From the sequence record PZ386969.1: a stretch of DNA of 64,000 nt; one strand, written 5' to 3'. This stretch comes from a phage. Both the position numbers and the translations under genes were made by a program. The notes beneath the pieces are model-generated. The model saw only the letters and a list, made by a program, of their open reading frames with translations, ran no database searches and had not been told where the DNA came from. This document shows, piece after piece, positions 10,034 to 61,304 of the stretch; position 1 is the stretch's first letter, and every line of letters starts with the position of its first letter.

Positions 10034-11023
10034 TCACTTCCACTTGATGTTGAGCATGACGTTGGTCAGGAAATACACAGCATGCAGCCAGACATCGCCG
10101 ACCTGACGGTGTTCAATCTGAGACTGACCACACACGCATACCAGATCAGGGATAGACTCATTCTGAACCAACATTTGCTTCTCTTTATCCTGTGGTACAC
10201 AGAACTGGAAGAAGCGGGAATAGAAGTCTTCAGTGATATAGTTCTGGTTGTCGGTCACCCACTGCTTCATCCCAGCCCAGTCATTATCCTTCAACATATT
10301 CACCAACATGCCCATATCGGCCGATTTTAACACAGCCAGTGCACGTTCGTCGATCTTGCCGTAAGTGGTGACGTTATCCTGTAGAACACCCATGATGCGG
10401 CGGTTATCAGGGAAATGGCGCTTGACAATAGCAGCCAACACAGGAGGGTCATACTCAACACCTTCGCAGCGAAGGATTTCAGCACAGCGGCGCATGAACT
10501 GAAGTTTTACCTCATCAGCCTCAGCCTCATTCCAGATAAAGTCGATTTCACGGCAACGAGAGCGCAGAGGTTCGTTCACACGTTGCTTGGCGTTGGTGGT
10601 CAGGATGAATGAACAGTTCTTGGAGACCTTCTCCACAATACCCTTCAGCGACTCCTGTGCCGCCATAGACAGACGCTCTACTTCGTCGAGGATAACGACT
10701 TTGCGACCACCGAATACGCTCACACCAGTAGAGTACTGAATCACGCGGTCACGGATAACGTCGATGCTGTTGTCCAGGGATGCGTTGATCATCAGTGGTT
10801 GCTTACAACCGATTTCATTACACACGGCCAGGGCGGAGGTAGTCTTGCCAGTACCAGGCTGAGGGGAGTAGAACAGCATAGACGGGATGTTGCCGTTGCC
10901 GCTGGTGATGTAGCCATGGATTTTAGCGCGGACGTCTTGAGGGATGATAATCTCGTCCAGGTTGTCAGGGCGGTACTTGTTTTCCCATGCGTACTGGTCG
11001 GAAACGATAGTGATATTAGACAT
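10034..11023 (-). CDS. gp44: clamp loader large subunit (gp44-like AAA+ ATPase)
   Basis: ENKYRP and SPQPGTGKTT Walker A match T4 gp44; start moved from track alternative start (11080) to ATG MSNITIV with GAGG RBS. Confidence 0.85.
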   Translation of the reverse strand: MSNITIVSDQYAWENKYRPDNLDEIIIPQDVRAKIHGYITSGNGNIPSMLFYSPQPGTGKTTSALAVCNEIGCKQPLMINASLDNSIDVIRDRVIQYSTGVSVFGGRKVVILDEVERLSMAAQESLKGIVEKVSKNCSFILTTNAKQRVNEPLRSRCREIDFIWNEAEADEVKLQFMRRCAEILRCEGVEYDPPVLAAIVKRHFPDNRRIMGVLQDNVTTYGKIDERALAVLKSADMGMLVNMLKDNDWAGMKQWVTDNQNYITEDFYSRFFQFCVPQDKEKQMLVQNESIPDLVCVCGQSQIEHRQVGDVWLHAVYFLTNVMLNIKWK

Positions 11024-11103
11024 TTCAGCCTCGTGTAGAAGAATCATTTCAAATAGGCGGGGAACGCCCCGCCCACACATTATAGCATCAGGCTGGAGAT
11101 TGA

Positions 11104-11772
11104 TTACTCAATCTGTGCGCCGACGAAGTAATTGATCGTCGCGTCGGATGATTGGAAGTTCACCATCTGTAGATCAGCACAGGCACGCAGAGTGTAGTTG
11201 CCTTCGATCATTTTCAGGTTGGCAACATCCAGCGGCATTACGAAGTCCGGCAGCGCGGTTTCGCCCAGCTCAACAGTGTAGTTGTTGGAGTTGTCCAGGG
11301 TAGTGGTGGTTGCAACCAGGCGAGTTTTGCCACCCTGAGCAACCAGGCGCACAGTCTTGTGTCCGAGGGTAGAACAGGCGCGGGTCAGTTCTTTCATCTT
11401 CTCTGGAGTGATGATCGCTTCAAAGTCGACAGACGGCAGTTCAATGGTGTCAGCCGGAACAACAGTGAGTTCTTTAGCAGAACGCCAGAATTGCAGCTGA
11501 GAGTTTTCGCCTTTCAACAGGATGTAGTCCTGATGGAATTCGGCTTTACCACCTTTGAAGGAAGGCAGGCGCTGGATGGCCAGAAGTTTGGTCAGGTCCA
11601 GGATAGGGAACTCAAACGGGAAGTCTTCTTCGATCTGTGCCACGGCGATAACAGTAGACGAATCGTTAATGCTGCGCAGCATCTTACCCGGTGTCAGGAC
11701 GATAGATGGGTTGATGGTCTCAAAGTTGGCCAGCAACTGAAGTGTACGTTCGGAGAGAGTGATCTCTTGCAT
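11104..11772 (-). CDS. gp45: sliding clamp (gp45-like)
   Basis: N-terminus LQLLANFETINPS resembles T4 gp45 ALLKNFATINSG; 222 aa; GAGGATA RBS. Confidence 0.8.
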   Translation of the reverse strand: MQEITLSERTLQLLANFETINPSIVLTPGKMLRSINDSSTVIAVAQIEEDFPFEFPILDLTKLLAIQRLPSFKGGKAEFHQDYILLKGENSQLQFWRSAKELTVVPADTIELPSVDFEAIITPEKMKELTRACSTLGHKTVRLVAQGGKTRLVATTTTLDNSNNYTVELGETALPDFVMPLDVANLKMIEGNYTLRACADLQMVNFQSSDATINYFVGAQIE

Positions 11773-11904
11773 TTGTATGTATCCTCAAAATATAGTGGGG
11801 GTTCAAGTCATGTTTGACGCAATCTAGTATCGCTGTGTTTTGTTTATAGAACAAGTGGCAAATTGCGCTACGCGTTATTAATAAATGCCTTCGGCATTTA
11901 TGGA

Positions 11905-11951
11905 CTTTATTAAAGATAATAACCTTTATTAAAGATAATAATCTTTATTAA
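11905..11951. repeat. AT-rich tandem direct repeat (19-nt unit CTTTATTAAAGATAATAAY, about 2.5 copies)
   Basis: Direct reading in the gp45 / plus-gene divergent region; hairpin AAATGCC-TTCG-GGCATTT just upstream at 11883-11900. Confidence 0.6.
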
Positions 11952-11980
11952 TCCTATTCGCTTCGCTCATAAAACAAATA

Positions 11981-12008
11981 CTCGTTGTTCGTTAACACTC
12001 ACAACTCG
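11981..12008. repeat. 28-nt motif CTCGTTGTTCGTTAACACTCACAACTCG, second copy at 52651-52678
   Basis: 27 of 28 identical between the two copies. Confidence 0.6.
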
Positions 12009-12014
12009 TATAAT
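11985..12014 (+). promoter_or_regulatory. sigma70-like promoter TTGTTC-N18-TATAAT
   Basis: -35 at 11985-11990, -10 at 12009-12014; about 120 nt upstream of plus gene 12136. Confidence 0.4.
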
Positions 12015-12135
12015 ACCACGCCATTGTTCAACAGGAAAGCAATTTTTTATTCAACAGCAAAATTAATTTAATTTGGTCTAAACATGCATGCGAAATAATA
12101 TGTATGTCAGGTTAACCAACACACGAGAGTAATAT

Positions 12136-12507
12136 ATGAAACAGTTCGTAGGATTATATGCGGTCGGATGCAGTAAGCCAGACGCCATCCTCACCGCAGG
12201 GCAATTTGTCACAGGCACCCCAGTTTATCTGGCACAGCTGGCGTCAGACAAGAACTTACCATCGGAGCCGCGATTTGTCCCTCTTGGCTTGATGACAGGC
12301 CTGAAAGTTGGTCTGTATGTCGGTGTTGTGACGTTTGAAAACGGCATCGAAGCGAAGGTTCTACCATTCAAAATGGGCAGCGAACAAATGCTGAAGGATA
12401 CGATCAGTGAACACCTGAACTCACAATGTCTGGCTTCTCTGGACAAATTGTTCGGCGTAGTATCTGATGAAGGCGAGGCCACCCCCGCCTATGTGAATCA
12501 AGATTAA
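12136..12507 (+). CDS. hypothetical protein (123 aa), plus strand, divergent from gp45
   Basis: ORF in track with ATG; 4-nt convergent overlap with UvsW 3' end; sigma70-like promoter about 125 nt upstream. Confidence 0.5.
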   Translation: MKQFVGLYAVGCSKPDAILTAGQFVTGTPVYLAQLASDKNLPSEPRFVPLGLMTGLKVGLYVGVVTFENGIEAKVLPFKMGSEQMLKDTISEHLNSQCLASLDKLFGVVSDEGEATPAYVNQD

Positions 12508-14012
12508 TCGTGATTACCCAGCGCCACCTTCATGAATTCCACAGGGTGGCGCTCTGCCAGGTAAAACTTGTAACGCTCGTGAGAGTGCCTAAGAGCGTGG
12601 TTCGTGCTGGCGTTGTACGATGCATCATCCACTAAGTCCCATATCCACGCGACGTCCTTAGAGGAGTGCTGACGCATCAGACGACCCAATGTCTGTATGA
12701 CGCGGATATATGACTTGCTCGGGTGTGCCAGTACAAGGTGGTGTAGCTTCTTGATCGACACTCCCTGCTGCATTGTCCCGTATGATGCCAACAGGGTGAT
12801 GTCCTCTCCATCCTCCATCGCTTTCTGTATGCGGCGGCGGTCTTCGATCTTCACTTCCCCGTTGATGACAAACACGTTGGGCTTGACTGCGCTCAGCATA
12901 TCATACACGACCATCATGTGACCATCAATACGTTCGAACATGATGGCCACGTTTCCTTTCAGATTCAGTGCCATCTTGGCGATCAGTTCGTTGCGGGACT
13001 GGTGTGTGATAAGGTATTCTATTTCCTTGGAATAATCCCCGTCTAGACCAACAGCATCCGCCGGAGTGTGCTTCAGCTGAATCATCTTCACTTTGATGTC
13101 AGTGGCGTACCCGAGATTGATAAGATCGCGAGCCGTGATGATCTTATGGTACGCCCCGAAGTGAGCCACCACCTGAAGCCCGGCAACTTTGGTATTCGCC
13201 AGCGTACCTGTAACCCCCAGGCGCTGGTCGGCATAGATGCAGTTGTTTAGGATGTAAGACAGTTTCTCAGACTTGGAGGTGTGCACTTCATCCACCACGA
13301 TATCACCGAACTGGTGGAACCATTCCTTCGGCTGGTCTTGAATACCCTGCCATGTACTGATGACGATTGGTTTGCTGATTTCCTTTGTCGCGCCCTCAAA
13401 GATCAATTGAGTGTTGACAACGGGCTTCCAATCACTGCCGTGTGCGTACTCTTCAAAGTTGTCGTACAGCTGAGTGACCAGGTGAATTGACGGAACCACG
13501 ATAAGCGTCTTCAGAGGACTTTCGAGAGCTTCTCTGCGCTGCCTGTAGTACCGCGCCATGACATACAGAATAAAGGACTTACCGGCACTCGTAGCCAGTT
13601 CACAGACGCATCTGGTTTGACGCATAGCCTTGGCGATGGTGTCGTACTGGTAGTCACGAGTCTCGGCATCGATATATTCGTGATTTTCGGTGCGGATCTT
13701 TGGATGCAGACTGTTGATGAAGTCATGGATTTCTTGGTCTGGGATGTCCTGAATGTACTTCAGAGCCGGATCCAGTTCAATGGTGTAGTTGTTGTTCTTG
13801 CAGAACTTGAACACCTCAAACAGTAGGCCGATATCAATCAGGCCGGATGACTTGGTGAACAAGCGAACAACCCCGTCCCATTTAGAGAAGGGGTTGGGAA
13901 CGAAGTTCGGGTCTTCGAATTTGAAGTAGTCATTCAGTTCTTCCCTGATAGAAAGATCTGCGATGCAACGCATGCGGACTTCGTTAACCTTAACAATCTG
14001 GATGTCTGCCAT
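12504..14012 (-). CDS. uvsW: UvsW-like SF2 DNA helicase
   Basis: ATSAGKS Walker A, DIVVDEVH box, and extended similarity to T4 UvsW (WQGIQDQPKEWFHQFG vs WQTVVKQPKEWFSQFG; KKLHHLVLAHPSKS vs KNLHHVVLAHGVKS); start at ATG MADIQIVKV with GGGAGA RBS. Confidence 0.85.
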   Translation of the reverse strand: MADIQIVKVNEVRMRCIADLSIREELNDYFKFEDPNFVPNPFSKWDGVVRLFTKSSGLIDIGLLFEVFKFCKNNNYTIELDPALKYIQDIPDQEIHDFINSLHPKIRTENHEYIDAETRDYQYDTIAKAMRQTRCVCELATSAGKSFILYVMARYYRQRREALESPLKTLIVVPSIHLVTQLYDNFEEYAHGSDWKPVVNTQLIFEGATKEISKPIVISTWQGIQDQPKEWFHQFGDIVVDEVHTSKSEKLSYILNNCIYADQRLGVTGTLANTKVAGLQVVAHFGAYHKIITARDLINLGYATDIKVKMIQLKHTPADAVGLDGDYSKEIEYLITHQSRNELIAKMALNLKGNVAIMFERIDGHMMVVYDMLSAVKPNVFVINGEVKIEDRRRIQKAMEDGEDITLLASYGTMQQGVSIKKLHHLVLAHPSKSYIRVIQTLGRLMRQHSSKDVAWIWDLVDDASYNASTNHALRHSHERYKFYLAERHPVEFMKVALGNHD

Positions 14013-14015
14013 ACA

Positions 14016-14044
14016 AAATCTCCCAAGAATTATGGGGTATTTAG
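14016..14044 (-). promoter_or_regulatory. late promoter motif CTAAATACCCCAT with imperfect inverted partner TGGGAGATTT upstream of uvsW
   Basis: Minus strand reads CTAAATACCCCATAATTCTTGGGAGATTTTGT then ATG. Confidence 0.5.
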
Positions 14045-14787
14045 TGATCTGGCCAGACTCCGTTCTGTTCTTTATCCATGCGATGGTACAGACGAACACG
14101 CTCAAACATCTTTGTCAGGATGTCATCACGGTTGAACTCAATGACGGTTGGTAGAGGGGAAGACTCGTTGGCGATCACATTGATGAGGCGGGTGATCTTG
14201 ACACCGAACATCTGCTGGAACATGACCGAATATAAGCACAGCTGGATACTGTAGTCCTCGATCATTCCCCGCGTCTTCATGATGTTCGATGTCTTGAAGT
14301 CGATGATAGCAGGTTTACCCTCATAAATCCCAATAAGGTCCACTCGACCTGCAAGACCAAGCACCTCGCTGTATAATGGGATCTCCTGAGCATAGATCTT
14401 TGTCATCTTGTTCAGATAGGGGAACAGCTGCTTGAACATGAACATGTATTCGCCAGCCGCTTCCAACACTTCTTTCATTGGGCGGTTCTTCAAATACAGT
14501 TCGCATGCAAGGTGCAGCTTCTCCCCTCGGTCAGCGCAACGCATGGTCTCAAGGTCGGCGGCCTCTGCACCTAGCTTCTTCCTCCAAGCCTCAAGCCATT
14601 CATGATCACCAGTACGCCCCAGCATAGTCGTGACGGATGTCAGCTTGACGCCAGTCGGCGATACATAATGACGACCGTTTTCCGTCGTCACACACTCCAG
14701 TTCCTTGTAAGGAAGTTCGTACTGCTGGAATGTGTAATGGCGGTTTTCGAAGTCATTCAGCTTGCGTAGATCCTGGAGAGATGCCAT
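14041..14787 (-). CDS. PD-(D/E)xK nuclease-like protein (Cas4/RecB-type motifs)
   Basis: GRVDLIG, IIDFKTS and QLCLY motifs in canonical order. Confidence 0.5.
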   Translation of the reverse strand: MASLQDLRKLNDFENRHYTFQQYELPYKELECVTTENGRHYVSPTGVKLTSVTTMLGRTGDHEWLEAWRKKLGAEAADLETMRCADRGEKLHLACELYLKNRPMKEVLEAAGEYMFMFKQLFPYLNKMTKIYAQEIPLYSEVLGLAGRVDLIGIYEGKPAIIDFKTSNIMKTRGMIEDYSIQLCLYSVMFQQMFGVKITRLINVIANESSPLPTVIEFNRDDILTKMFERVRLYHRMDKEQNGVWPDH

Positions 14788-17886: not shown

Positions 17887-18231
17887 TCACAGCGCCCCAA
17901 GATTGCCGATTACGTACAGGGAGCACAGAGGAGTGCCTGACGAACGAGGTTCGATCGTCATCCCGCTCAGGCGGATCAGTTCCAGTAAGCCGTCAGTGGT
18001 CTGATACGCGCGTGTCGAACCGTTCGGTCGATATAGTTCCAGCTCAGTTCGCCCTTCCTTTAATGCATTTCGAATGCGCGTGAACACGCTGTGGTCGCCG
18101 AACTTCTGTTTCAGAATATCCAGTTTGGTGACCAGGCGACGCGATTTGCGTGGCTTACGCTCGCTCGGCTTTTCGAATTTGACGATGTGGGGGATCTCCA
18201 CGGATTTGTTCAGTTTGGTGTCTGCTGCCAT
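17887..18231 (-). CDS. hypothetical protein (basic)
   Basis: ORF in track with ATG. Confidence 0.45.
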   Translation of the reverse strand: MAADTKLNKSVEIPHIVKFEKPSERKPRKSRRLVTKLDILKQKFGDHSVFTRIRNALKEGRTELELYRPNGSTRAYQTTDGLLELIRLSGMTIEPRSSGTPLCSLYVIGNLGAL

Positions 18232-18300
18232 GGTAAAGTCCTCTATTTGTAGGGGATAGGGTATGCGGTTAACATACCCTGTTCAAAGGTTTAGAACAAA

Positions 18301-50715: not shown

Positions 50716-52477
50716 AACGCACCTCCGGCTCCACAGTCACAGCACCGATGCGGAGCACCTGATTCTGTGTGGCCTGAATGTTCTGGTCAAGACCGTCTGG
50801 AGACACAATTATTGTCACACCCTCAGTGTTGTAGTTGGATACTATGATACGCTGGAGTTCAACAACGCCAGTCACATAATCAACCATTCCAACAGCTTGT
50901 ACCAGATATTCCTTGGTCGTGTCTGTTGTACTCACCTTGTACATATTCAGGACACCACTGACGTCGCGTATGTAGTAAGTGAATTCGACCTCGGCCGGAA
51001 GCGGCTTAAACCCACTGATACGCACAGAACCAGACGCAATCGAGCGCCCATAATCGAATGTGAAGCTGTCCAGTACCCCATAGTCTGGCTTGAAATGGCG
51101 CTTATACTTCACAGAAGTGATGTTTGACACTATCGATCTGTCCATGTCGGTGATGGCCGACTGCAACTGCTCTTTATCGAACAGTTCGTCGAATCCTTCT
51201 AGGTTCCCCAAGCCCCAGTTGACAACACCGTTCTTCACGACTGTCTTCAACTGCTCTTCGGTATAGGACGTGGAAGTCGGATCCCAGAACACGCGGGTGG
51301 TGACATCAACATAAGTCAGTTCAGCGTCGACAATCTTGGGTGTGATCGTGCCCACATTGTACTTGTCTAACGTCGCCACGATATCTGCCTTCTCAGCGTC
51401 CGAGAGCGCCTCACCAACAGAAGGTATCACAGCAATGTAAACGTATCCGGAGTCAGGCGGAGAGAGCGTGTCGCCGCCATATGCTTTGGCGCGGGAGACG
51501 TTGGAGAACAGACGCTCGGTCAACACAGCATAATCGACTTCGGCCACTGCCGCACCCTCAGCCTGATAAGCCAGCGGAGCAAGGCGCTTGATGTCCTCAA
51601 TGCTCTCTGGGTCCGCACCGCCGGAAGAACGTTCTGACACCAGCTCAACATCCACAAGGTTGAATCCCCCGATGGAAGACGCGGAGGACAAGGTAGTGAT
51701 GTCATTGCCGTCTGCACCAGCTGTCTCCAGATACTGGAGGTACACGACGTTCCCGTCTTCTACTCGCTTACAGATATACCCATCACCGAATTCGAACGTG
51801 TACATCCCGTCCAACCCCAGCTCAACGAAGTAGAGTTGCGCATACTGGCTCAAATCGAACGGGCTGACATATCGTGAGAAGGTAGACCGCACGTCAGATG
51901 TCTCAGATTCCTGCACCTGCACCACCATATGGTCGATGTCCACGGAAGAAGATGGGATCACATAGGTAGAGATCGCGCTACCTTCCACATCATAGGACTT
52001 GTACAGCCAGTTACCCTGTATGAGTTTGATGTTCTCGAACTTGTAAGAGCCGTCTACAAGAGAGGCGCTCACAGGTTGGTCAACCGTGAAGTTGTAGGAT
52101 TTGCCATCCTTCGCCCCAATGAACATCGCGCGGCGATCCATTATAATCGTGTCCGGAGCCGTGCTGGCGTCATATGGAGTGACTGTGACGTTTGCGTACA
52201 GGTACGCCGCCTGGTAGTTGTGAGGGGTGTACGACAAGAACCCGGCCGCAAGACCGACATTAGAACGCTGTTGAGCAGAGTGAAGATGGCTTTCGCCATT
52301 CAGCATGTTCTGCATGAACCCGATAGAGTTGGCATCCGAGGCCAAGATACGCACGATTGCACTGAGACCAGAACCTTCAAAGTCATAATCCTTGAAAGTT
52401 GGATCAGCTTTCATGCGCTTCTTGATAAGATACTCGAAAGCCCTGACATCGAGTGAAGGGACTGTTTGCGTGGCCAT
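50699..52477 (-). CDS. baseplate wedge protein (gp6 / J-like, putative)
   Basis: 592 aa; start moved from TTG 52528 to ATG MATQTV with GGAGA RBS; late motif GCTAAATATC upstream. Confidence 0.55.
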   Translation of the reverse strand: MATQTVPSLDVRAFEYLIKKRMKADPTFKDYDFEGSGLSAIVRILASDANSIGFMQNMLNGESHLHSAQQRSNVGLAAGFLSYTPHNYQAAYLYANVTVTPYDASTAPDTIIMDRRAMFIGAKDGKSYNFTVDQPVSASLVDGSYKFENIKLIQGNWLYKSYDVEGSAISTYVIPSSSVDIDHMVVQVQESETSDVRSTFSRYVSPFDLSQYAQLYFVELGLDGMYTFEFGDGYICKRVEDGNVVYLQYLETAGADGNDITTLSSASSIGGFNLVDVELVSERSSGGADPESIEDIKRLAPLAYQAEGAAVAEVDYAVLTERLFSNVSRAKAYGGDTLSPPDSGYVYIAVIPSVGEALSDAEKADIVATLDKYNVGTITPKIVDAELTYVDVTTRVFWDPTSTSYTEEQLKTVVKNGVVNWGLGNLEGFDELFDKEQLQSAITDMDRSIVSNITSVKYKRHFKPDYGVLDSFTFDYGRSIASGSVRISGFKPLPAEVEFTYYIRDVSGVLNMYKVSTTDTTKEYLVQAVGMVDYVTGVVELQRIIVSNYNTEGVTIIVSPDGLDQNIQATQNQVLRIGAVTVEPEVRYVQRS

Positions 52478-52515
52478 GATAATCTCCATCACCTGAGTTT
52501 GAATATGGTGTTGAA

Positions 52516-52526
52516 GATATTTAGCC
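52516..52526 (-). promoter_or_regulatory. late promoter motif GCTAAATATCT upstream of gp6-like gene
   Basis: Motif about 40 nt before ATG 52477. Confidence 0.45.
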
Positions 52527-52650
52527 AACGGGAATCAAAACGCTCGCGCGCGTTTAATTTATTCGAATATAACTCGCGAGGGGGCTGACGCCCTCGCTCG
52601 TAACACCGCCCTATGCGGGCAGCACCATTCCACAGCCATGGAGGCTGCTT

Positions 52651-52678
52651 CTCGTTGTTCGTTGACACTCACAACTCG
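52651..52678. repeat. 28-nt motif CTCGTTGTTCGTTGACACTCACAACTCG, copy of 11981-12008
   Basis: Located in the strand-switch region between the baseplate block and the plus-strand block. Confidence 0.6.
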
Positions 52679-52842
52679 AAGGGCACTGCGTTAGGATACA
52701 GTTTCTTGATGTTGTAGAAAAGTAGTTTTTACCTATTAATAATCACTGTCATTATTTTATTGGTCATTCCTGTGTTTATATTCAATAAACATACTCCCAA
52801 TATAATAACGGAGACATTTAATCAATCCAGTGAGGCTCCGGA

Positions 52843-53412
52843 ATGCACATTAACACAGCAATCATGAAACACATTATTCCTTTGTTAGCAAAATACGAAG
52901 GGGAACGCGCCGCGAAAATCCCTTTTGGAACAATTACCGAAGAAGTGAAACGCCTGACAGGTAAAAGTATCAATTTCCGTCGCGTTATTGAATCTGCCTT
53001 AGAGTTGGCTCGTTCTGATTTACGAAATCCAACATTTTCATTTAATATTGACATAACTTCTTCGCTTCGACAAGAAATGGAAGAATCATCACAAGCGCGG
53101 CGCAATCGTTTCCGTCATTTATATGTTCGTAACGAATTCTCTGAAGGTCGTGTTGGTATGAAACTGGAGTCTATTCGTTCTGACATTTGCTTCACTGTCA
53201 ACTATGTTTTAGAGCCAGAAAGCGGGCGCATTTATTTTGGCGCGATTATCGGTTTCTATGGGAACTCCATTAATGGTTGGGCAGAACGCGTTGGATTAAA
53301 AGAAACCCAGAACACTCATTCCACACCTTCTACCCATTATATGACGCATGAAGCTGCTGGCGAATATGTTTACCTTCTGCGTCGTGTTGTGAAGTTAGAA
53401 GTGTTAAAATAA
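52843..53412 (+). CDS. hypothetical protein (189 aa)
   Basis: ATG with GAGG RBS; first gene of the plus-strand block. Confidence 0.5.
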   Translation: MHINTAIMKHIIPLLAKYEGERAAKIPFGTITEEVKRLTGKSINFRRVIESALELARSDLRNPTFSFNIDITSSLRQEMEESSQARRNRFRHLYVRNEFSEGRVGMKLESIRSDICFTVNYVLEPESGRIYFGAIIGFYGNSINGWAERVGLKETQNTHSTPSTHYMTHEAAGEYVYLLRRVVKLEVLK

Positions 53413-55444: not shown

Positions 55445-55521
55445 GGTCCTGTAGCTCAGTCGGTTAGAGCAGTGAACTCATAATTCATTGGTCATTGGTT
55501 CAAACCCAATCAGGATCACCA
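55445..55521 (+). tRNA. tRNA-Met (CAU)
   Basis: Manual cloverleaf: acceptor GGTCCTG/CAGGATC, D-arm GCTC-AGTCGGTTA-GAGC, anticodon loop CTCATAA, T-arm ATTGG-TTCAAAC-CCAAT, encoded CCA. Confidence 0.8.
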
Positions 55522-55655
55522 TATTGAGGGGCGATAGTTTAATGGATAGCTGTCCGGACAGTGAATCCTCATAGAGAACGGCTGGGCGGCCAAACCCAGC
55601 AGGTGAGGTGAAAAGCCTCAGACCCCGCCAATACAGTTTGTTGTAAAATAAATGT

Positions 55656-55683
55656 TTGTTCAATAAACTTTATATGGTATAGT
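55656..55683 (+). promoter_or_regulatory. sigma70-like promoter TTGTTC-N16-TATAGT upstream of tRNA-Asn
   Basis: -10 ends 9 nt before tRNA 5' end. Confidence 0.4.
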
Positions 55684-55692
55684 GATTTGCAA

Positions 55693-55768
55693 GACGATGT
55701 AGTTCAGTCGGTAGAACGGCGGTCTGTTAAACCGTATGTCGCAGGTTCAAGTCCTGCCATCGTCGCCA
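55693..55768 (+). tRNA. tRNA-Asn (GUU)
   Basis: Acceptor GACGATG/CATCGTC, anticodon loop CTGTTAA, T-arm GCAGG-TTCAAGT-CCTGC, encoded CCA. Confidence 0.8.
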
Positions 55769-56025
55769 GACAATGGGTGTGAACGAAAGTGAATAGGCAT
55801 AAAGTACGCGACCGACAAGCTCCAAGCCTCTGTCCAATAGCCGAACGGAATCCGAAGACGACGATAGTAGCGCCCACCAAATTCAGAGTGTAGAGGCTAC
55901 AGTAGTGCGCACCTCACGGGTTGCTACACCGGACACTCTGATACAAATCTACCGCCGCGTGGATTAGCTGAGGAAGGATGGCCGATGTCCTCGAGCGTGG
56001 CCCAGCACGCAGCGGCAGACCAAAT

Positions 56026-56109
56026 GTGAGTGTGGCAGAGCGGTCGAATGCAGGAGACTGTAAATCTCCCCGTAACAGCGCGGTGGTTCGAATCCATCCA
56101 CTCACACCA
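56026..56109 (+). tRNA. tRNA-Tyr (GUA), long variable arm
   Basis: Acceptor GTGAGTG/CACTCAC, anticodon loop CTGTAAA, T-arm GGTGG-TTCGAAT-CCATC, encoded CCA. Confidence 0.75.
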
Positions 56110-56329
56110 AACACAGTAAGCGTTGCAGCCAGCTGTGTATAAAATGGGGTGACTCCACATCGGAAACGATGCCCCAACTTCCAGAAATGGTCGGGCGCAA
56201 AGTCTGTAAAGTTCCAGGAGATCGAACCAGAAGGCACTGGTCGCCAGTTAACCAATCGGCGCTGAGAAGCGCGGGGAGTTGGGCTACGGCAGATCAAATG
56301 CTCAATCGGGTGTGAAGCCCGTCCAAATT

Positions 56330-56418
56330 GGAAGGTTGCCCGAGAGGTTTAAGGGACTCGACTGCTAATCGAGTGGGGCTTTTAGCCCCCGAAGGTTCGA
56401 ATCCTTCACCTTCCGCCA
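56330..56418 (+). tRNA. tRNA-Ser (GCU), long variable arm
   Basis: Acceptor GGAAGGT/ACCTTCC, anticodon loop CTGCTAA, variable-arm hairpin GGGGC/GCCCC, T-arm GAAGG-TTCGAAT-CCTTC, encoded CCA. Confidence 0.8.
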
Positions 56419-60652: not shown

Positions 60653-61225
60653 TTATTTCTTCAGATCAGGCCACGCACCAGAGGTCGCAGTAGACCCAGC
60701 TGGGGGAGCAGACTCAAGATCGGGAGCACCCGACTGAGTAACAACAGTGGGATCTTTCTGTACGACCCGAACCCCAAATTGCTTGAGAGCATCCATAGCT
60801 TGGGCTTTTCGCCTGTTGCTTTTGTAGTGGTTGTAGCCTTTGATACCGAATGATGCACTAATTGCTGTCAATAACGAATAGGTATACCATTCAGGTGCGG
60901 TATCTAGTGCCTGAAGGCCACCGATTACTGCTTTGATGAAATCCCCTTTATGATACTCACCAGGGAACAGAAACAGTTCCACAACCGGAGCAGTCATGAC
61001 GAGGATGGCGGGTATGGCCAACACGATAGTCCAGAATTCGTCTTTCCAAGACCCGCCGACTTCGGTAATCTTAGACAGCTCCCAATCTGAGGAGGACTTG
61101 ATGGCCTCCAGCTTGACGTCGTGTTTGGCCTGTACAACTTCCCGCTTATATTGGATCAAATCAGTCCCGAGGTTCCAGAGTTGCTTGAGCGCCCCTGGGA
61201 TCATACCAACGAGGGGGATTGCCAT
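60653..61225 (-). CDS. membrane protein (two hydrophobic segments)
   Basis: Start moved to ATG MAIPLVGM with AAGGAG RBS; segment FWTIVLAIPAILVMTAPVV. Confidence 0.45.
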   Translation of the reverse strand: MAIPLVGMIPGALKQLWNLGTDLIQYKREVVQAKHDVKLEAIKSSSDWELSKITEVGGSWKDEFWTIVLAIPAILVMTAPVVELFLFPGEYHKGDFIKAVIGGLQALDTAPEWYTYSLLTAISASFGIKGYNHYKSNRRKAQAMDALKQFGVRVVQKDPTVVTQSGAPDLESAPPAGSTATSGAWPDLKK

Positions 61226-61304
61226 AATAAACTCCTTGGTCAATGAATGGCTCTATGGTTAAATATGCCCACGTGCTAACGGCACGGATAACCTGGAGAA
61301 TTAC

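Follow-up and report, generated by a model that had tools for sequence, protein, structure and literature searches.

The 64,000-nt phage sequence analysed here (record PZ386969.1, the whole of which we call the window) contains a 363-nt gap at positions 11773–12135, which lies between gp45 on the minus strand (ATG at 11772) and orf123, a plus-strand gene encoding 123 amino acids (ATG at 12136). With a probability of roughly 0.55, we read this gap as a divergent transcription-control region that is conserved across the phage family and heads the gp45-gp44-gp62-regA replication-gene cluster, and not as an iteron-type replication origin. The original prediction, made from the letters of the window, had correctly described the gap between gp45 and a plus-strand open reading frame (ORF), called it a divergent control region with a sigma70-like promoter, and suggested that iteron-like AT-rich repeats within it mark a replication origin or a regulator-binding array. 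The first of these proposals fits the conserved flanks found in four genera and three conserved hexamer pairs, and the second did not hold.

A similarity search with a 2.4-kb query around the gap matched 178 phage records. The closest were the Escherichia phages RPN242 and LHE287 (97.4%) and the Agtrevirus phages SKML-39 and Ag3 (96%), with Dickeya phages of the genus Limestonevirus at about 91% and Kuttervirus (ViI, CBA120) in a 60–80% band. From these relatives, the window is identified as a ViI-like, Agtrevirus-related Ackermannviridae genome. The intergenic region was found in 273 phage records from four genera, and alignments were made from eight phages and then from about 20 unique sequences, including IMG/VR contigs. 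Across the four genera, the non-coding flanks are 70–90% identical at the nucleotide level, which equals the coding conservation of gp45 and gp44, and the intergenic DNA is 70–78% identical where the orf123 protein is only 36–41% identical to its Kuttervirus and Taipeivirus orthologues. Sliding identity to ViI or Menlow showed a trough of 0.2–0.5 at 11856–11972, values of 0.75–0.9 on both sides of it, and 0.2–0.5 again in orf123.

Three promoter-like sites lie in the conserved flanks:

11826–11854, minus strand: P-1, leftward sigma70-like site, TTGTTC (11854→11849), N17, GATACT (11831→11826), predicted start near 11819
11985–12014, plus strand: P+1, TTGTTC (11985–11990), N18, TATAAT (12009–12014), the promoter of the original prediction, present as stated and kept in all genera
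12073–12101, plus strand: P+2, orf123-proximal promoter-like site, TTGGTC-N17-TAATAT, with conserved hexamers

The predicted start of P-1 is about 47 nt upstream of the gp45 ATG, and among eight phages of four genera its hexamers are invariant and its 17-nt spacer is variable. In other genera P+1 reads TTGCTC-N17 with TATAAT, TATATT or TATAGT, the A at position 2 and the T at position 6 of the -10 hexamer being invariant. P+2 ends 35 nt ahead of the orf123 ATG; its -10 hexamer is TAATAT or TATTAT across genera, again with a variable spacer. P+1 was not listed by the consensus scan because its -35 hexamer matches TTGACA at 3/6 positions, and promoter-like sites in the surrounding 2 kb occurred at shuffle frequency (3 found, 2.6 expected). 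As a bare consensus match, P+1 thus does not go beyond chance, and what speaks for it is its cross-genus conservation. The pattern TTGTTC-N16-18-TAWNNT occurs six times in the window (0.77 expected), and four of the six sites are intergenic and correctly oriented. An extended -35-like motif, TTGKTCTAAAC, was found at 12073–12083, at 18289–18299 on the minus strand, and upstream of nrdA in LHE287 (contig L032, 15396–15406, minus strand). Each time it is accompanied by TAnnnT at N17, with a gene start 35–50 nt downstream (orf123, the ORF ending at 18231, and nrdA); at the 18289–18299 site, the -10 at N17 stands 40 nt ahead of the gene. TTGKTCTAAAC is a candidate for a phage-specific early promoter class.

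According to the CBA120 genome paper, ViI-like phages lack MotA, AsiA, Alt and ModA, their early promoters could not be identified, points of divergence must hold a promoter each way, and their middle and late promoters and replication origins were likewise not identified (PMC3184105). The LIMEstone1 paper gives in-silico promoter predictions only (PMC3296691). We did not adopt the “putative middle promoter” (CTT...TAATAC) that the LIMEstone1 record places over the hairpin called module A below, nor its minus-strand -10 near 12096, because both were predicted by similarity to a T4 consensus although the family lacks MotA.

Between the two promoter sets lie the two features that form the conservation trough:

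11881–11901, no strand: GC-clamped hairpin, ATAAATGCC-TTC-GGCATTTAT, 9-bp stem including flanking A-T pairs
11905–11951, no strand: AT-rich tandem repeat, unit CTTTATTAAAGATAATAAY, detected by Tandem Repeats Finder, with copy-number polymorphism (a variable-number tandem repeat)

The repeat was recovered where it had been predicted (period 19, 2.5 copies, 96% matches, score 87), and its 18-mer is restricted to its two places in the 64 kb with 3 mismatches allowed (0.01 expected by chance). Its supposed role in initiation did not survive the comparison of relatives. Phages more than 96% identical in this region carry 1.5 copies (fGh-Ecl02), 2.5 copies (the window) or 3.5 copies (A221), and SKML-39 and LIMEstone1 have 1.5 copies, that is, one unit plus CTTTATTAAT. 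Kuttervirus lacks the 19-nt unit and has a different AT-rich sequence in its place, and Taipeivirus lacks both the unit and the GC-clamped hairpin. In effect, viable phages already provide a series of repeat deletions and insertions, which fits replication slippage between flanking CTTTATTAA repeats and is not as expected of a copy-number-dependent initiator or regulator array. Further analysis showed no GC-skew turning point at 12 kb, although skew in such phages mainly follows transcription, and no adjacent initiator (Rep/O-like) gene, the neighbours being gp45 and the poorly conserved orf123. The 19-nt repeats thus look like a slippage polymorphism, a recently expanded filler, and not like origin iterons.

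The hairpin exists, although not quite as first drawn: its core is AAATGCC-TTC-GGCATTT at 11883–11899, 17 nt with a 3-nt loop, and not 18 nt with a TTCG loop. As RNA, its minimum free energy (MFE) is -9.3 kcal/mol on the plus strand (z -3.5, with 0 of 200 shuffles as good) and -8.8 kcal/mol on the minus strand (z -2.4). In a terminator scan, it passed on the plus strand only (9 pairs, 3 of them G-C; tail GGACTTTATT). It is kept in Aglimvirinae and Kuttervirus, with loop TTC vs TGAC, and Taipeivirus has an AT-only palindrome, AATAGATTAATCTATT, where it stands elsewhere. A terminator-like function on the plus strand, with insulation between the two divergent promoters, is possible. The hairpin/repeat segment gave no fold common to the genera (alifold energy about 0).

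Beyond the repeat, two further hairpins were identified by comparison of relatives:

11978–12011, putatively minus strand: P4 hairpin, AUAC-UC-GUUGU-UC-GU-[UAAC]-AC-UC-ACAAC-UC-GUAU as read on the plus strand, 11 pairs with two 2×2 internal loops
11956–11970, putatively minus strand: module A mini-hairpin, invariant TCGCTTCGCTC, just upstream of P4

P4 overlaps P+1 from the -35 through the spacer and into the -10. In 11 phage sequences, 95.7% of its cells are paired and 4 of the 11 pairs show changes on both sides, a score that none of 500 shuffles reached. The changes are A-U to C-G and A-U to U-A between the gp45 locus (L1) and a paralogous locus (L2), C-G to U-A in SKML-39 at L2, and, in an uncultured relative, U-A to C-G. 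Pairing fails only where the plus strand has C.A, and there the minus strand has G.U. When credible bacterial homologues were added, 5 of the 11 pairs covaried in an alignment (A5) of which 19 columns are fixed by the search pattern. Module A reads AT-TC-GC-TTC-GC-TC-AT on the plus strand and AT-GA-GCGAAGC-GA-AT on the minus strand, a GCGAAGC core with tandem G.A flanks. It is 100% paired in 10 sequences and its closing pair covaries (C-G/U-A), with an apex that varies between TTC, TAC, TGAA, GTT and, in L2, a long GC insertion. A P4 covariance model found exactly two P4 copies in the window and the rest of the LHE287 genome, and matched module A as the apical part of P4. These compensatory substitutions support P4 and module A as conserved base-paired elements, although the independent events are few. 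Searches against Rfam 15 gave no match at E ≤1 in 11000–13000 or at E ≤5 in 52300–53000; over the window, the region, the paralogous locus and 13 bacterial loci, they returned only tRNAs and one unrelated small RNA, with no match overlapping the bacterial P4 homologues. A literature search for the hairpin motif strings found unrelated primers only. A boxA/nut-like reading of module A (CGCTCATAA vs CGCTCTTTA) was dropped because structure and not sequence is conserved and the strand evidence is contrary.

The P4 sequence is not confined to the gp45 gap. The 28 nt CTCGTTGTTCGTTAACACTCACAACTCG at 11981–12008, which run from the -35 of P+1 up to its TATAAT, recur with 27/28 matches at 52651–52678, and this second copy is followed by AAGGGC where L1 has TATAAT. 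The copy is part of one of two further cassettes:

52572–52681, no strand: cassette L2, between gp6 (minus) and orf189 (plus), conserved in four genera
52572–52601: L2 module A, with a GC-hairpin insertion
52608–52620: L2 hairpin P2
52633–52647: L2 hairpin P3
52648–52681: second P4 copy of L2, covariance model score 50.9 bits
LHE287 60918–61280 (L032 10918–11280): cassette L3, upstream of gp5, with module A, P2, P3 and AAGGGC and without P4

L2 lies in another intergenic region of about 364 nt (52479–52842); the real start of gp6 is near 52478 and not at 52528 as given by the ORF caller. Its hairpins also covary, with GCCC..GGGC vs GCCT..AGGC, and with CAGCC-AUGGA-GGCUG vs AUGCC-AUGGA-GGCAU in L3. 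L3 is kept across the family (Kuttervirus, Limestonevirus and Taipeivirus); all its flanking genes are on the gp5 strand, and a strong terminator precedes it. Folding L2 and L3 together by alifold gave a z of about -12. The loci upstream of gp45, gp6 and gp5 form a three-member family of paralogous cassettes.

From the observed conservation pattern, copy-number variation, covariation and paralogy, we infer promoter activity, strand and function as follows. Host sigma70 RNA polymerase would start leftward at P-1 for gp45 and rightward at P+2, possibly also at the distal P+1, for orf123. The weak A/T-flanked GC hairpin and an AT-rich spacer would separate both promoter sets, and the 19-nt repeats would be an expansion of this spacer by replication slippage from an ancestral state of one unit plus CTTTATTAAT, having no copy-number-dependent function. 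Module A and P4, the latter overlapping P+1, would be superimposed on the promoter region. Both most probably work as nucleic-acid structures of the gp45-sense (minus) strand, which over them would necessarily be transcribed by read-through from uvsW. Their role may be that of a repetitive extragenic palindromic (REP)-like RNA element, a single-stranded DNA (ssDNA) or origin signal, or a modulator of P+1.

Several results weigh against a control region of this kind. The -35 hexamers of all three sites match TTGACA at only 3/6 positions, and the consensus scan did not list them, although their -10 hexamers (TATAAT, TAATAT, GATACT) are good. P+1 and orf123 are 122 nt apart, with P+2 between them; the P+1 spacer is much more conserved than a promoter requires, and the 28 nt recur at 52.6 kb without a -10, so the TATAAT of P+1 may partly be a by-product of the hairpin. 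The GC-clamped hairpin has just 3 G-C pairs and no T-tail on the minus strand, and Taipeivirus lacks it. The strand evidence is mixed: the minus strand is the better fit for P4, P2 and module A, but in L2 and L3 helices P1 and E have their G.U pairs on the plus strand. Transcript maps of Ackermannviridae were not found in the searchable literature, which holds only in-silico promoter predictions (LIMEstone1, CBA120).

The strand of the hairpins bears directly on the strongest alternative, in which the functional core of the region is a structured minus-strand (gp45-sense) RNA carrying P4 and module A, with P2 and P3 in the paralogues. Leftward transcripts would arise by read-through from uvsW or from an unrecognised promoter, the elements would act as REP-like 3′-end or intercistronic structures that stabilise, process, attenuate or antiterminate ahead of gp45, gp6 and gp5, and the plus-strand P+1 would be secondary or coincidental. 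Beyond the compensatory changes in both hairpins, the MFE of P4 is -10.8 kcal/mol on the minus strand vs -5.7 kcal/mol on the plus strand, the UC/UC loops become tandem G.A in CGAG context on the minus strand, and a recurrent T/C polymorphism at pair 13–26, seen in three lineages as C.A on the plus strand, is A-U/G.U on the minus strand. The alifold of the A+C block has a z of -4.35 on the minus strand vs -1.6 on the plus strand. The 3′ ends of orf123 (12136–12507, plus) and uvsW (12504–14105, minus) overlap tail to tail with no good terminator between them, and minus-strand read-through into the region is therefore expected. A structured RNA would also suit the second P4 copy without any -10, the uniform orientation of the genes around L3, and the occurrence of similar hairpins in dispersed REP-like elements. 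On balance the minus strand is favoured, with strand and molecule both deduced from sequence. However, no leftward sigma70-like promoter was seen by eye in 12017–12135, the G.U pairs of helices P1 and E speak for the plus strand, independent compensatory events in P4 and module A are few (about 4–6), and no Rfam family matches; moreover, such an RNA is compatible with the promoters of the divergent control region. An RNA as the functional core is possible, and we hold it only tentatively.

Hairpins resembling P4 were also found in bacteria. The pattern TCGTTGNTCGN{4,8}CTCACAACTC hit 34 loci in one metagenome scan and 6 loci in one genome scan, and four of these were Ackermannviridae. Two classes were distinguished:

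Class I: contigs L039, L042, L045–L048, L060, L061, L065, L068, L072 and L076
Class II: contigs L041, L051, L055 and L056

Class I comprises about a dozen loci from uncultured Alphaproteobacteria and other metagenomic contigs, in which the hairpin lies inside nested GC-rich palindromes. They adjoin unrelated genes, as dispersed repeats like REP and bacterial interspersed mosaic elements (BIME) do; their helix 1 covaries (GGC/GCC, GGU/ACC), and a neighbouring hairpin, CGAGCGAAGCGAG, has the same sequence as module A read on the minus strand. In the four class II loci, GTAG-GTCGGGTT doublets carry the hairpin at their apex. Of the other pattern hits, roughly half have no helix 1, as is the case for about half of all 34 metagenome hits, and these are probably chance matches, since at this database size a 19-base pattern is expected, by a rough estimate, tens of times. 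The phage cassettes themselves are not REP/BIME elements proper, having neither many dispersed copies nor a known REP-associated tyrosine transposase (RAYT) nor GTAG flanks. A broader proposal would make the three cassettes (module A, P4, with or without P2/P3) an undescribed class of cis elements common to Ackermannviridae and the REP-like repeats of Alphaproteobacteria, serving the phages as origins, primosome or R-loop signals or as a new regulatory RNA module; we regard it as rather unlikely.

It is unlikely, too, that the region and its two paralogues form an origin of the T4 oriF/oriG kind, with a promoter, an easily unwound AT-rich tract and displaced-strand hairpins, in which module A and P4, as ssDNA signals, would keep an R-loop stable or bring in the helicase and primase. 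T4 has several replication origins, and the three copies per genome would be in line with this. The region adjoins replication genes and UvsW, the most AT-rich 60-nt stretch of the 64 kb falls in the 363-nt gap (83% AT), and the most AT-rich 100 nt of the window are in the L2 region. On its minus strand, module A keeps the consensus GCGNAGC (GCGAAGC in the window, GCGTAGC in phage May), which has been described as “mini-hairpin DNA” from the G4 complementary-strand origin, RSF1010 ssiA and the N4 early promoters (PMC13037366). However, L2 and L3 have no -10, the module A apex is not GCGNAGC in several paralogues (for example CBA120 L3 and FKP14 L3), and folding with DNA parameters gave weak energies. 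The AT-rich repeat is not conserved, no initiator gene adjoins, GC skew gives no signal at 12 kb, and the case for such an origin is wholly inferential.

One more candidate is a plus-strand RNA of about 100 nt that would start at TTGCAT-N18-TATAGT (11767–11796), end at the hairpin (11881–11901) and modulate gp45 as an antisense to the 5′ end of its transcript. Such a start site was found, TATAGT and its surroundings are invariant across genera, and the plus-strand tail of the hairpin, terminator-like on that strand only, is more T-rich in Kuttervirus. However, TTGCAT coincides with the gp45 start codon (ATGCAA) and would be constrained in any case, the invariant block is equally explicable as the gp45 translation-initiation region, Taipeivirus lacks the terminator hairpin, and 11800–11880 shows no clear covariation, which leaves this RNA improbable. 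Very improbable is the second role once suggested for the 19-nt repeats, a binding-site array for a phage or host regulator: each unit does contain a short dyad (TTATTA-AAGA-TAATAA) and the repeats lie between divergent promoters, but AT-only dyads are frequent by chance, close relatives differ freely in copy number, Kuttervirus and Taipeivirus lack the unit though the remaining region is conserved, the 64 kb hold no additional unit, and the repeats lie farther from either promoter than the -40 to -60 at which upstream elements usually sit.

Beyond these elements, the gap and its plus-strand neighbour contain the following features:

11806–11817, no strand: small hairpin GTCA-TGTT-TGAC in the gp45 leader, from alignments and alifold
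12024–12084, no strand: AT-rich blocks TTGTTCAACARGAAAG (12024–12039) and ATTTGGTCTAAACA (12071–12084), invariant in the alignments
12136–12507, plus strand: orf123, PHROG 4255, function not assigned

The stem of the gp45-leader hairpin is invariant, which precludes a covariation test; Taipeivirus keeps the stem with a loop 2 nt longer. The DNA between the two invariant blocks is AT-rich (82% AT at 12043–12082), and a conserved RNA fold in the plus-strand 5′ leader (12018–12140) was rejected (alifold energy 0). On the gp45 side of the gap, the minus-strand genes are regA, gp62, gp44 and gp45. Many Kuttervirus records label the orthologues of orf123 “clamp loader subunit”, which looks like an annotation carry-over, because orf123 has no Pfam match and belongs to a PHROG of unassigned function. 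The idea that orf123 and orf189 are paralogous regulators was rejected, as they have no mutual similarity and no Pfam domain. uvsW is intact in the window; in LIMEstone1 (L001 4209–6803) and several Dickeya phages, it is interrupted by the homing-endonuclease element I-LimI. The genome is a mosaic: the gp45 region (10800–13200) shares 96% identity with Agtrevirus SKML-39 and about 78% with Kuttervirus, and the gp6/orf189 region (52500–52900) is 91–95% identical to Kuttervirus and just 74% to SKML-39. Nowhere in the 64 kb does the T4 late consensus TATAAATA occur. A TAAATA-containing motif stands about 40–50 nt upstream of the late baseplate genes gp6 (52516–52526 of the window, minus strand, GGCTAAATATC) and gp5 (L032 about 11227–11237 of LHE287, GCATAAATACC), is conserved across genera and could be the late promoter of ViI-like phages. 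The 363-nt gap is the second largest intergenic gap in the window, and the largest such “intergenic” gap holds a plus-strand cluster of four tRNA genes (Met-CAT, Asn-GTT, Tyr-GTA and Ser-GCT, 55445–56418), with a TTGTTC-N16-TATAGT site 10 nt ahead of the tRNA-Asn gene.

The analysis removes a false lead, the “iterons”, and offers two sets of testable candidates, the TTGKTC-type promoters, including the recurring TTGKTCTAAAC, and a covariation-supported hairpin family at three syntenic intergenic sites. Should the hairpins prove to be signals in regulatory RNA or in ssDNA, the stronger conservation of this non-coding DNA relative to the neighbouring gene would have an explanation, and a phage control element would be linked to REP-like bacterial repeats. 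A regulatory RNA module would time the expression of replication and baseplate genes in a family without MotA and AsiA. ViI-like Ackermannviridae phages are in wide biocontrol use, against Salmonella, E. coli O157 and Dickeya.

Among known systems, iteron-type origins (phage lambda ori, plasmid iterons, the T4 oriE repeats) share with the gap direct repeats of about 19 bp, AT-rich DNA and nearby replication genes. They usually have at least 3–4 repeats of constant length and spacing, kept among relatives, and differ in that the phages studied here have 1.5–3.5 copies that vary among near-identical genomes, with the unit missing in sister genera, no adjoining initiator gene and no copies elsewhere. 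T4 oriF and oriG consist of a MotA-dependent middle promoter, whose transcript forms a persistent R-loop for priming, and a downstream unwinding element, and the likeness is a promoter-like site with very AT-rich DNA downstream, a T4-related replication module with UvsW next door, and several loci per genome. Unlike T4, ViI-like phages lack MotA and AsiA (PMC3184105), and two of the three paralogous loci have no -10.

The GCGNAGC mini-hairpin DNA described by Hirao resembles the minus strand of module A (GCGAAGC/GCGTAGC), with tandem G.A flanks in CGAG context; several phage paralogues have other apices, however, no N4-like virion polymerase is encoded, and the single-stranded state of the phage DNA is putative here. 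REP/BIME elements are likewise intergenic mosaics of imperfect hairpins with conserved mismatches, and P4-like hairpins do occur inside the nested-palindrome repeats of Alphaproteobacteria and in GTAG-flanked doublets. In contrast, the phage has two P4 copies and three cassettes per genome at syntenic positions fixed across genera, no RAYT-type transposase is known in it, and the GTAG flank was seen only in bacterial class II.

The resemblance to bidirectional intrinsic terminators lies in the combination of A-tract, GC stem and T-tract and in a position between divergent or convergent units, but the stem here has 3 G-C pairs, meets the T-tail rule on the plus strand only and is missing in Taipeivirus. 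Compared with E. coli sigma70 and T4 early promoters, the sites differ in their -35 hexamers (TTGTTC, TTGGTC or TTGCTC, 3/6 to TTGACA), in the extended TTGKTCTAAAC of P+2 and in the position of P+1 inside a conserved hairpin. They agree with them in hexamers 17–18 bp apart, a TAnnnT -10 and AT-rich surroundings, and P-1 and P+2 agree further in combining conserved hexamers with variable spacers.

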